Below, in pieces: positions 12,132 through 13,942 of a stretch of 32,000 nucleotides of DNA. A program made the position numbers and the translations under genes. The notes beneath the pieces are model-generated. The model saw only the letters and a program-made list of their open reading frames with translations. It had not been told where the DNA came from and searched no databases. Within the stretch, counting starts at the first letter, position 1. Every line of letters begins with the position of its first letter. The stretch comes from Halogeometricum borinquense DSM 11551 (lineage in GTDB: Archaea > Halobacteriota > Halobacteria > Halobacteriales > Haloferacaceae). Location of the stretch: positions 1,500,001-1,532,000 of the forward strand of contig NC_014729.1 of NCBI RefSeq assembly GCF_000172995.2, read 5' to 3'.

Positions 12132-12563
12132 ATGGTGAAGAGTACCCGTCACGCGAAATACGAACTCTACTACCACATAGTGTTCGTGCCGAAATCTGGC
12201 GGAATCGAAGATTCCGCTGACCTCGCGGAACAGGGTTCCGCTCAGTATCGGCGTTCGCACCTGACGGGGAAGACGAAGGAACGTCTCGAAACCATCTTCG
12301 CGGAAATCTGTGAGGACAAGGGCCTCGAACTGGCCGAGTCCGAGGTCATGCCCGACCACGTACACCTGTTCATTGGGAGTCCACCCAAGAACGCCCCGTC
12401 ACTCATCGTCAACTGGGTCAAGGGCATCTCCGCCCGCAAGTACAACCAGCGGTACGATGACCGCGTGAAGTGGACTCGTTCGTACTACGTCGGGACGGCG
12501 GGGAGCGCCTCGAAGGGCGCTGTCGAACAGTACATCGCTGAACAGGAGGGTGGCGACGAATGA
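12132..12563 (+). CDS. tnpA: IS200/IS605 Y1 (HUH) transposase TnpA carrying a 17-aa in-frame insertion
   Basis: YHIVFVPK...YRR motif, HUH motif (PDHVHLF), catalytic Tyr region (RSYYVGTAG). Stop overlaps the tnpB start (ATGA at 12560-12563). Confidence 0.9.
12199..12241 (+). repeat. twin-hairpin module 1, inside tnpA
   Basis: GCGGAATC-GAA-GATTCCGC (12199-12217), a 7-nt spacer, then GCGGAAC-AGG-GTTCCGC (12225-12241). All stem pairs are perfect; checked base by base. Confidence 0.85.
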
Positions 12564-13942
12564 AGCGCGTCAACACCTTCGAGGTCGTGCCACAGACCGA
12601 GAACGACAAAGAGTGCCTTCTACGGCTACTCGACGCCTCCGCCTCGCTGTGGAACGAACTGACCTACGAACGTCGTCAGAACTACTTCGGTAACGGCGAC
12701 GTGTGGGACACCTCCGAGTACCGTGGACAGTACAACGGTGTCGTTGGAAGCGCGACCGTTCAACAGGTCACGCGCAAGAACAGCGAAGCGTGGCGGTCGT
12801 TCTTCGCCCTCAAAGAGAAAGGCGAGTACGCCAACCCACCGTCGTACTGGGGCAACGAGGAGGACGGGCGCGAACTCCGCACCTACATTCGGTGCAACCA
12901 GTACACGATTGAGTGGGGGAAGCGTAGCCGTCTCGAAATCCCTGTTGGGCAAGAACTGAAAGACGAATACGGACTCGGCTACCACGAACGACTCCGCCTC
13001 GAAGTCCGAGGCAACCCGAAGTGGGACGGCAAACAGGGTCGTCTGGAACTTGAGTACGACGAAATGAGCGACACGTTCAGGGCTTTCCAACCAGTCACCG
13101 TCCCTGATTCTCGACTGGATTCACGGAAAATCGAAGATTTTCCTGAAGTCGAAAACGCTTCGCGTTTTCGGAATTCACCACTGGCTTCGGAAGAAGCCGC
13201 CCTCGACGTTGGCGCGAACAATCTCGTCGCCTGTTCCACGACCACTGGGAACCTGTACCTCTACGACGGTCGGGAGTTGTTCGGACGGTTCCGCGAGACG
13301 ACAGACGAAATCGCCCGCCTACAGTCGAAATTGCCCGAGAGACGCAGTCTCTCGGAATCACGGAAGACTTCGTCTTCCGGACGACTCCGCGAAGGACGCT
13401 ACTCCTCGAAACGGATTCGACGGCTGTACCGACAGCGGACGAAGCGCCGTGACCACGCACAGAACGCGCTGGTGCGCGACCTCGTTGAACGGCTGTACGA
13501 CGAGGGAGTGGCGACGGTGTACGTGGGCGATTTGACCGACGTGCTGGAAACGCACTGGTCGGTCAGGGTGAACGAGAAGACGCACAACTTCTGGGCGTTC
13601 AAGAAGTTCATCCACCGTCTCGCGTGCGTCTGTGAGGAATACGGTATCAGCCTCGAAGCCGAGTCGGAAGCGTGGACGAGTCAGACGTGTCCCGAGTGTG
13701 GCGACCACGAGGAGACGGTCCGCCACGGAGATACGCTGACGTGTTCATGCGGATTCGAGGGACACGCCGACCTCACGGCGTCAGAGACGTTCCTTCGAGA
13801 AAACAGCGATACGGAAGTCAGGCCGATGGCACGGCCCGTGCGATTCGAGTGGGACGACCACGACTGGTCGGGGAAACCACACCCTCACGAAAGTCCCAAA
13901 GAAGTGCGCACAAACCCGCAAGTTGCCTCCGTGGGTCGGTAG
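12560..13942 (+). CDS. tnpB: TnpB (IS605 OrfB / IS1341-type RNA-guided endonuclease)
   Basis: RuvC-I region [10 protein letters not shown], zinc finger CPECG...CSCG, Ruv[15 protein letters not shown]. The C-terminal [12 protein letters not shown]...[10 protein letters not shown] is typical of haloarchaeal TnpB, as far as I recall. Confidence 0.9.
13125..13170 (+). repeat. twin-hairpin module 2, inside tnpB
   Basis: GGAAAATC-GAA-GATTTTCC (13125-13143), a 6-nt spacer, then CGAAAACGC-TTC-GCGTTTTCG (13150-13170). Perfect stems. Flanked by GATTCAC (13118-13124) and GAATTCAC (13171-13178). Confidence 0.85.
13335..13379 (+). repeat. twin-hairpin module 3, inside tnpB
   Basis: CCGAGAGAC-GCA-GTCTCTCGG (13335-13355), a 5-nt spacer, then CGGAAGAC-TTC-GTCTTCCG (13361-13379). 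Perfect stems. Confidence 0.85.

Follow-up and report, generated by a model that had tools for sequence, protein, structure and literature searches.

Hairpin doublets in haloarchaeal IS200/IS605 elements: a probable family of very small palindromic insertions, kept in frame within tnpA and tnpB

The small mobile repeats (SMRs) of Haloquadratum walsbyi (HqIRS42, 43, 55 and 41) are transposase-free elements of 80-120 bp that end in inverted repeats and do not duplicate their target (Dyall-Smith et al. 2011, PMC3119063). They favour IS605-type transposons and the elements known as PATEs, where they insert at near-terminal palindromes; an SMR position can take different elements or the opposite orientation ('switch_repeat'), and SMR mobilisation has been called enigmatic (PMC3119063). 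Here we describe sequences for which SMRs are the closest precedent. They lie in a window of 32,000 nt from Halogeometricum borinquense DSM 11551 (contig NC_014729.1, positions 1,500,001 to 1,532,000; coordinates below are those of the window), which carries a complete insertion sequence (IS) of the IS200/IS605 family (ISHbo5-like; 11949-13993, + strand, 2045 bp). Four modules, each made of two adjacent short hairpins (hereafter doublets), are present in this IS, three of them in frame within tnpA and tnpB and one in the non-coding left end (LE). Like SMRs, doublets of this type are free of a transposase, have inverted terminal repeats, show no regular duplication and target IS605-type elements (50 of 51 lie in IS regions); two different doublets (M0a and M0b) share a site at the foot of an LE hairpin, and a 48-nt insert occurs in the loop of an LE hairpin (loci L010 and L011). 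Doublets differ from SMRs in length, since at 51-60 bp they are about half as large and fall outside the range of 80-120 bp, a comparison made by description only. Moreover, SMRs are reported mostly outside open reading frames (ORFs), whereas doublets occur repeatedly in frame inside tnpA and tnpB, consist of two perfect C-NNN-G hairpins, and are found in many high-GC genera.

Other described repeats have been compared as well. The 52-bp 'terminal-only' PATE, an IS605-type derivative (PMC3119063), resembles a doublet in being non-coding, in having palindromes of similar sequence without a target duplication, and in its size of ~52 bp; deletion between two palindromes is also seen in one doublet (L040), and there is a likeness between the M2 leader with its flank (TTCACGGAAAATCGAAG) and the left end of the IS (TTACGGAAAATTCGAGG), which we consider a weak lead. 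Identity with this PATE was nevertheless rejected, as it keeps a single palindrome together with both IS termini, whereas doublets have two hairpins that are unlike the hairpins at the LE and right end (RE) of the IS, and have no constant target oligonucleotide. The bacterial REP/BIME/REPIN repeats, mobilised by the Y1 enzyme RAYT, likewise consist of paired short hairpins linked to a Y1 HUH protein, form arrays (as does L015, below) and keep their stems by compensatory change. REPs, however, are extragenic, exceed 100 copies per genome, have imperfect stems and a GTAG/CGTC tag, and flank a domesticated RAYT gene, while doublets are of low copy number, lie mostly inside IS genes, and have perfect stems and no tag. 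Rickettsia palindromic elements (RPEs) are bacterial palindromic repeats of 100-150 bp that insert in frame into many housekeeping genes, whose products tolerate them as additional peptide segments at the surface, and they show no specificity for transposons. Doublets have no sequence relationship to RPEs, so that the comparison drawn in the preliminary description of this DNA holds as an analogy and not as membership. REP/BIME-RAYT, PATEs and RPEs are best regarded as functional analogies whose defining features are lacking here. The features of MITEs are lacking too, since doublets have no fixed-length duplication and their ends are inverted-repeat-like only through the mutual likeness of the two hairpins. 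In our literature searches, we came across no account of hairpin doublets lying in frame within tnpA or tnpB.

The hairpins of the four modules have stems of 7-10 bp and loops of 3 nt, and all are perfect except for the second hairpin of M0a, which has one mismatch. M1 (51 nt, 12195-12245, + strand) adds 17 residues to TnpA between PK and YRR, and consists of GCGGAATC-GAA-GATTCCGC (12199-12217), the spacer TGACCTC and GCGGAAC-AGG-GTTCCGC (12225-12241). M2 (54 nt, 13121-13174, + strand) adds 18 residues to TnpB between PDSRLD and SPLAS, has ATTCA on both sides, and comprises GGAAAATC-GAA-GATTTTCC (13125-13143), the spacer TGAAGT and CGAAAACGC-TTC-GCGTTTTCG (13150-13170). M3 (54 nt, 13331-13384, - strand) adds another 18 residues to TnpB between LQSK and LREGRY through CCGAGAGAC-GCA-GTCTCTCGG (13335-13355), the spacer AATCA and CGGAAGAC-TTC-GTCTTCCG (13361-13379). 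M0a (51 nt, 11984-12034, + strand, boundaries +/-3 nt) lies in the non-coding LE, at the 3' foot of the LE hairpin CGCCC-TTCA-GGGCG, with ACCAGAACGC-TAA-GCGTTCTGGT (11987-12009), the spacer TGCC and the imperfect CGCCAGAC-GTA-GTCTGaCG (12014-12032). The hairpin pairs of M1, M2 and M3 span 43, 46 and 45 nt, with spacers of 5-7 nt.

These modules are related to each other in sequence as well as in layout. M1 and M2 align base for base across hairpin 1, the spacer and the start of hairpin 2, and where their stems differ, the differences are paired. The motif AATCGAAGATT is found at 12203 and 13129, and GGAWTCACGGAA at 13117 and 13354, i.e., two occurrences each versus ~0.01 expected. Direct reading of the reverse complement of M3 gives TCGTC CGGAAGAC GAA GTCTTCCG TGATTC CGAGAGAC TGC GTCTCTCG, which has the M1/M2 layout of a GAA-loop hairpin followed by a TGAnnnC spacer; judging from this spacer and loop similarity, M3 is most likely opposite in orientation to M1 and M2. 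In the doublets generally, a short leader, often starting with TC, is followed by a perfect hairpin of 7-11 bp with a 3-nt loop and 5'C..G3' closure, a spacer of 4-10 nt (often TGAnnnC or TGSC), a second, similar hairpin and a short tail. Across the window there are 8 perfect hairpins with a stem of at least 7 bp and a loop of 3 nt, 7 of which are within the IS. In 283 kb, made up of the window and the fetched loci (designated L with a number), 51 adjacent hairpin pairs were counted versus 0 in 20 block shuffles, so that composition-matched nulls do not reproduce the hairpin density. Folded as single-stranded DNA (ssDNA), the four modules have z-scores of -3.8 to -4.4, with M0a at -4.4. The preliminary description had recognised M1 to M3 and their hairpin-spacer-hairpin architecture; all three are real, all six of their hairpins are perfect, and both common cores are present at the positions it gave. 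Its third shared motif, GGAATC..GAAGA, is only approximate in M2, and the fourth module, M0a, had been missed.

Homologues that lack the modules allow the insertions to be delimited. In protein alignments, the modules are clean indels of 17, 18 and 18 residues that some homologues have and others do not, such that TnpA has 143 residues with M1 and 126 without, and TnpB has 460, 442 or 443, or 424 residues. In DNA (a slash marks the junction), the empty site is CCGAAA/TAC... for M1 (L009; many 126-residue homologues are also without M1), CTGG/ATTCACC in six copies for M2, and TCGAA/ACTCC in six copies for M3. These give insert sizes of exactly 51, 54 and 54 nt, as anticipated by the claim that the insertions are 51-54 nt and multiples of three. 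The empty sites restore the conserved codons PK/YR, LD/SPLAS and SK/LREG, as seamless excision would, and are also compatible with a site never having been inserted. The M0a site is empty in six copies (L006, L008, L013, L017, L022 and L026), and in four others (L005, L007, L019 and L023) is occupied by the different doublet M0b (GCGAGAGC.. and CGAAAAGC..). Each module is independently present or absent in related IS copies from more than 15 haloarchaeal genera, and all module combinations occur among IS copies that are 85-97% identical. On neighbour-joining host trees built without the module columns, M1 (in 22 of 111 sequences) requires at least 17 state changes, M2 (7 of 114) at least 6 and M3 (11 of 114) at least 8; these counts are indicative only, the trees being poorly resolved for the short TnpA. 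Module presence is thus highly homoplastic and incongruent with the host trees, and ~80% of the related TnpA and TnpB sequences are without modules.

The doublet family was found at about ten distinct sites. Other in-frame indels of the homologues are also hairpin doublets at the DNA level, including two inserts of 60 nt, one close to the TnpA C-terminus (L034) and one upstream of the M2 site (L037), and an insert close to the TnpB C-terminus (L035). Hairpins of the type AYCAGAAS occur at four sites (M0a, L034, L035 and L037) and in both orientations. Doublets also nest within doublets. In L039, an M1-like 51-mer (TCA AGCGAAACC GAA GGTTTCGC GGACATC GCGGAGC TTT GCTCCGC TCAG) sits in the M3 spacer within tnpB, and in L019 a further doublet of 55 nt sits in the M0b spacer. 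In L040, M1 has collapsed to a single 27-nt hybrid hairpin via a deletion between its two hairpins. A copy of M2 in L015 lies outside IS genes, within an intergenic array of at least four doublets spanning ~300 nt, which is the only doublet cluster seen outside an IS; the sequence available starts at the array. This array (L015 1-305; JBDGRN010000083.1, from the metagenome-assembled genome Halobacteria archaeon) is AT-rich, lies upstream of a peroxiredoxin-like gene and has 7-8 perfect hairpins in 300 nt, and its M2 copy has ATTCA on both sides.

Several hairpins of related kind were seen alongside the doublets. In another IS200/IS605 clade, the LE hairpin (CCCCCGCC TTC..AG GCGGGGG) has the above-mentioned 48-nt insertion in its loop (L010 2430-2500 and L011 6270-6340; absent in L024 4090-4110), which contains one perfect hairpin (GTTCCGAC(A)...). 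In clade-C tnpA, the host codons just past M1 (QYRNAVL) form a hairpin of 10 bp with a 3-nt loop (TCAGTACCGC AAC GCGGTACTGA; L004 3108-3130, with equivalents in L010 and L011), overlapping the last 4 nt of M1, and a further 10-bp hairpin lies between tnpA and tnpB (L004 3451-3473). Hairpins that resemble the family but occur singly were found in L042 33685-33705 (NZ_CP044525.1 83685-83705) and L040 2408-2430. Their stem, ACGAGACGC/GCGTCTCGT, is that of the nested doublet of L019, and one of the two is intergenic, the other being in an IS left end.

When 185,579 species genomes were scanned with the M1/M2 core, 22 matches were returned, all in Halobacteria: 13 of M1 at PK/YR of tnpA, 8 of M2 at D/SPLAS of tnpB, and the single intergenic M2 of L015. 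The genera include Haloferax, Haloarcula, Haloterrigena, Halobellus, Natrialba, Halopenitus, Halorientalis, Halosimplex, Halapricum and Haloarchaeobius. Scanning metagenomes for M2 added 7 matches, all from Halobacteria and all at the same site of tnpB, so that 28 of the 29 matches lie within tnpA or tnpB. In the fetched loci, 50 doublets are in IS-masked DNA (55 kb, which took in the L015 intergenic array via a peptide match) versus 1 in 228 kb of non-IS DNA. An unbiased 150-kb stretch of a Halorussus plasmid has five IS200/IS605 elements and a single doublet, which is an M1 in the tnpA of one of the five. No match was obtained in an M3 scan of viral contigs, in a BLAST search of M2 against the PLSDB plasmids or, for any module, with the Rfam 15 covariance models; M1 gave only 4 BLAST matches in PLSDB, two under annotated tnpA and two under no annotated feature. 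From the core and metagenome scans, the non-IS count and the plasmid count, it follows that doublets are rare and haloarchaeal and very largely restricted to IS200/IS605 elements, most of which carry none. The preliminary description had suggested one in-frame palindromic repeat family colonising an IS200/IS605 element; the copies in many genomes and the clean insertions in homologue alignments both bear this out.

The mode of sequence change points to selection on structure, as had been proposed. Modules are 90-100% identical between distant hosts whose coding flanks are 71-85% identical, and M2 is 100% identical in hosts with ~70% DNA identity; between close hosts, module differences sit in the loops. 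Among 15 distinct M1 copies, 99.1% of the stem cells are paired, three pairs display compensatory double changes (A-T to G-C, T-A to C-G, and A-T to C-G or G-C), and the covariation score was reached by 0 of 500 shuffles. Because these compensatory changes alter the encoded residues (IED to TEG or TGG), the constraint is on pairing and not on the peptide. The loops are hypervariable and also switch to the reverse-complement sequence, TTC alternating with GAA in hairpin 2 of M2 and of M3, as expected from inversion of a spacer between inverted repeats in DNA. The 5'C..G3' closure is found in 55 of 56 distinct doublet hairpins, and a GNA triloop on one strand in 62% of the 56, compared to 12.5% expected and 17% of 71 solitary hairpins. 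The d(C-GNA-G) motif forms an extraordinarily stable DNA mini-hairpin (GCGNAGC has a melting temperature of 70-76 C), its RNA counterparts are much less stable, and it is also found at signals for ssDNA initiation in phages and plasmids (PMC13037366). Nearly every doublet hairpin centre is C-GNA-G or its complement, as in the d(GC-GNA-GC) mini-hairpins of Hirao and co-workers (PMC13037366), and GCGAAGC itself is present in some copies. The motif is a structural one and not a genetic element, and accounts for stability and not for mobility. Together, the C-GNA-G triloops, the occurrence in both orientations and the presence in non-coding DNA point to a DNA-level structure and not an mRNA structure.

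The host proteins appear to accommodate the modules. The HUH motif and catalytic Tyr of TnpA, and the RuvC D/E/D residues and zinc-finger Cys of TnpB, are intact and invariant across homologues. When TnpA is aligned by HMMER to solved structures, the alignment is interrupted exactly at M1, and the PDB homologues align on both sides of it. In AlphaFold models, M1 is a loop of low pLDDT that joins beta1 to alpha1, and M2 and M3 lie in low-confidence coil; with mean pLDDT values of 67 and 58, these models have low confidence overall and were used solely for this placement. Halopenitus malekzadehii has two 100% identical IS copies with all four modules at different TTAC sites, therefore a fully loaded IS transposed recently. 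Judged from sequence, the modules are compatible with IS activity. That they are always in frame holds for the ORF-borne copies (51, 54, 54, 57, 60 and 60 nt), but the non-coding doublets measure 51, 52-54 and 55 nt. Since non-coding lengths vary and only intact ORFs enter the protein database searched, the in-frame property is best read as survivorship. An adaptation for freedom from stop codons was rejected: in the modules borne by ORFs, 4-5 of the 6 frames are open, which is nothing unusual for DNA of this GC content.

Junctions were inspected for traces of an insertion mechanism. The left flanks of the doublets differ (..AAAT, ..ATTCA, ..GGAGT, ..GCTG and ..GGGC), and a loose motif, GRAN/TNNC, fits 4 of 5 sites of the M1/M2 type (type B), again a weak lead. 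A regular target-site duplication was rejected: ATTCA repeats at M2 (in two contexts) and TCA at the nested M1-like copy, and the other junctions have 0-2 nt. Similarly, TTAC, TCAC or TCAT precedes CAGAA at the four sites of AYCAGAAS doublets, yet a TTAC-like target was rejected because the empty-site comparison assigns these bases to the inserted segment. Gene conversion between distant hosts with co-converted flanks is unsupported, because the flanks diverge right at the module edge. The module stems (GCGGAATC, GGAAAATC, CGAAAACGC, CGAGAGAC, CGGAAGAC and ACCAGAACGC) differ from those of the IS ends (LE, CGCCC TTCA GGGCG; RE, GCGCT TT AGCGC). The sole likenesses are that of the M2 leader to the 5' segment of the LE and that of one L015 hairpin to an RE hairpin of clade C (AATCCC/GGGATT).

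Overall, we consider it probable that the modules are a family of very small palindromic insertion elements that parasitise IS200/IS605 elements, with the reading frame kept through survivorship and the hairpins acting as DNA. Doublets would be optional cargo that enters the IS200/IS605 elements of haloarchaea close to hairpins and at a few further preferred sites and then travels with the IS, gain and loss being seamless. Within tnpA and tnpB, only stop-free inserts with a length that is a multiple of three would be seen, in permissive surface loops, because only those leave the transposon functional. The hairpins would act as single-stranded or cruciform DNA, and movement would be rare, non-autonomous and through ssDNA, with a preference for hairpin-proximal DNA. 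IS200/IS605 transposition uses ssDNA hairpins, as established for IS608 and ISDra2. The obvious candidate for mobilisation would be an enzyme that recognises hairpins, such as a Y1 (TnpA-type) transposase, and IS200/IS605 elements might serve as targets since their own DNA is often single-stranded and hairpin-rich; a link of the modules to TnpA and ssDNA hairpins is therefore plausible. The spread of a given module is probably largely passive, with the IS and through recombination among IS copies. A bolder version, which we put forward tentatively as a possibility, is that the doublets are, at ~50 nt, among the smallest transposable elements known, consisting of hardly more than two C-GNA-G DNA mini-hairpins, and are parasites of a parasite that are moved seamlessly through ssDNA by a Y1 TnpA-type enzyme and home into hairpin-proximal sites of IS200/IS605 elements, the spacers of other doublets included. 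If true, optional loops of 17-20 residues would thereby be added to TnpA and to the RNA-guided nuclease TnpB, providing natural insertion-tolerant sites and structural variation in both.

Several observations weigh against a family of mobile parasites. Junction repeats vary from 0 to 5 nt, with no consistent target tetranucleotide or target-site duplication, the module hairpins are unlike the LE and RE hairpins of the host IS, and no enzyme for doublet movement was identified. Copy number is low and nearly all copies of a given module occupy one homologous site, so that much of the spread could be IS inheritance and recombination and not repeated transposition. The stem variants of M1 are clade-specific, suggesting long (vertical) residence, and the strong nucleotide conservation could equally mean that the modules are useful to the IS. 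The sample is also biased, as the loci were mostly retrieved for containing modules and the protein search, being word-seeded, may favour module-bearing homologues.

One alternative is that doublets are cis-acting functional parts of the IS, selected for the benefit of the transposon and occasionally lost. Being stable hairpins in ssDNA, they might resist single-strand-binding proteins, pause replication, provide signals for priming or for the handling of ssDNA, or offer additional protein-binding sites that tune excision and integration. Module conservation above that of the coding flanks across clades, stem covariation, the long co-residence suggested by the clade-specific M1 variants and the activity of module-laden IS all fit such a role, as does the C-GNA-G motif at ssDNA initiation signals of phages and plasmids (PMC13037366). 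We nevertheless regard it as unlikely, given that ~80% of the related TnpA and TnpB sequences and four of the five IS200/IS605 elements on the unbiased plasmid do without doublets, that different doublets share one site or nest in one another, that both orientations occur, and that one copy lies in an intergenic array outside any IS.

It is still less probable that the palindromes are non-mobile and were made in place, by template-switch or snap-back errors in often-single-stranded DNA followed by quasi-palindrome correction, and spread only via IS recombination. Near-identical sequences of 51-54 nt in unrelated flanks (M2 in L015 and the M1-like copy in the M3 spacer) argue against this, the inserts are not copies of local flanks, different sites have in common the layout of leader, GAA-loop hairpin and TGAnnnC spacer, and in distant hosts the flanks diverge at the module edge with no co-converted tract. 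Local origin would, on the other hand, explain why stems are perfect while loops vary and flip, why several junctions have short repeats of 1-5 nt, why presence and absence among close copies look recombination-like, and why a deletion between two hairpins is observed (L040). Finally, the preliminary description had considered mRNA structures that throttle TnpA and TnpB translation, or processing sites for small RNAs. The modules do lie inside both ORFs and have RNA folding z-scores of -2.6 to -3.7, but these proposals drew no support from our analysis and we hold them to be very improbable: both orientations occur, there are copies in the non-coding LE and in intergenic DNA, loops flip, the C-G-closed triloops are a DNA-stability motif that is weaker in RNA, mismatches in imperfect copies display no bias of G-U over A-C (direct reading, small numbers), and no Rfam family matches.

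Very small palindromic insertion elements of this kind would represent a minimal substrate for the hairpin-directed mobility of archaeal DNA, and would add a further layer of mobile-element ecology, that of elements living inside transposon genes without destroying them. The modules mark natural insertion-tolerant sites, namely the beta1-alpha1 loop of TnpA and, in TnpB, the positions just before RuvC-I and in the helical region past it, which is of practical interest for engineering TnpB-type genome editors. They also explain length variants in haloarchaeal annotation (TnpB of 424, 442 or 460 residues and TnpA of 126 versus 143), and offer a clean natural system for the in vivo upkeep, flipping and deletion of perfect palindromes.

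The ends of the host IS were set by aligning 14 related copies from other genomes with differing flanks. Pfam matches are Y1_Tnp, OrfB_IS605 and Cas12f1-like_TNB; its nearest relatives are haloarchaeal, and the ISHbo5 family was named by one source. The LE subterminal hairpins (GGGCGA..TCGCCC and CGCCC TTCA GGGCG, 11958-11984, + strand) are kept in all aligned copies and are presumed, by inference, to be the TnpA recognition region; the type with a TTCA or TTTA loop is also found at the LE and RE of related elements. They are followed by tnpA (12132-12563, + strand; Y1 HUH transposase of 143 residues, 17 of them from M1; PF01797, E = 6e-33) and tnpB (12560-13942, + strand; RNA-guided nuclease family, 460 residues, 36 of them from M2 and M3; PF01385 and PF07282). 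The RE hairpin ATCCTC-GCGCT-TT-AGCGC-GGG-GAGGAT and the GTCAA of the right cleavage end (13962-13993, + strand) are kept in all full-length copies, the right boundary reads ...GGAGGATGTCAA, and flanks diverge directly after TCAA in the 14-copy alignment. Sub-threshold Rfam matches to sot0042 and HgcC cover 13787-14006, i.e., the 3' end of tnpB and the RE, which is the expected omega-RNA region of the IS. At the left boundary (11945-11975), CTGC precedes the window copy in place of the TTAC target of 13 other copies, and its first LE bases deviate (GGGAAATACGGGG versus the consensus GGAAAATTCGAGG); this end may be decaying or atypically inserted, though both ORFs are intact. Among the TnpB homologues, P0023 and P0120 (486 and 468 residues) have a precomputed match to PF00160 (cyclophilin-type isomerase) besides OrfB_IS605 and have in common an extra LYDDVIFHRVI segment, which may reflect a gene fusion or a mis-call.

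Two convergent host ORFs run into the ends of the IS, which seems to have replaced their native C-termini. The upstream ORF (10504-12030, + strand) encodes 508 residues with no Pfam match and a Thr-rich tail, and contains a 17-nt direct repeat (11900-11916 and 11924-11940), while the downstream ORF (13996-14162, - strand) is small and contains a CPxCG motif. Elsewhere in the window, an ORF of 889 residues for a fused cytochrome oxidase subunit I+III (397-3066), Dph2 (14294-15328) and, near the window end, a tyrosine-recombinase gene of the phage integrase family (28484-29557) make up an ordinary chromosomal context.

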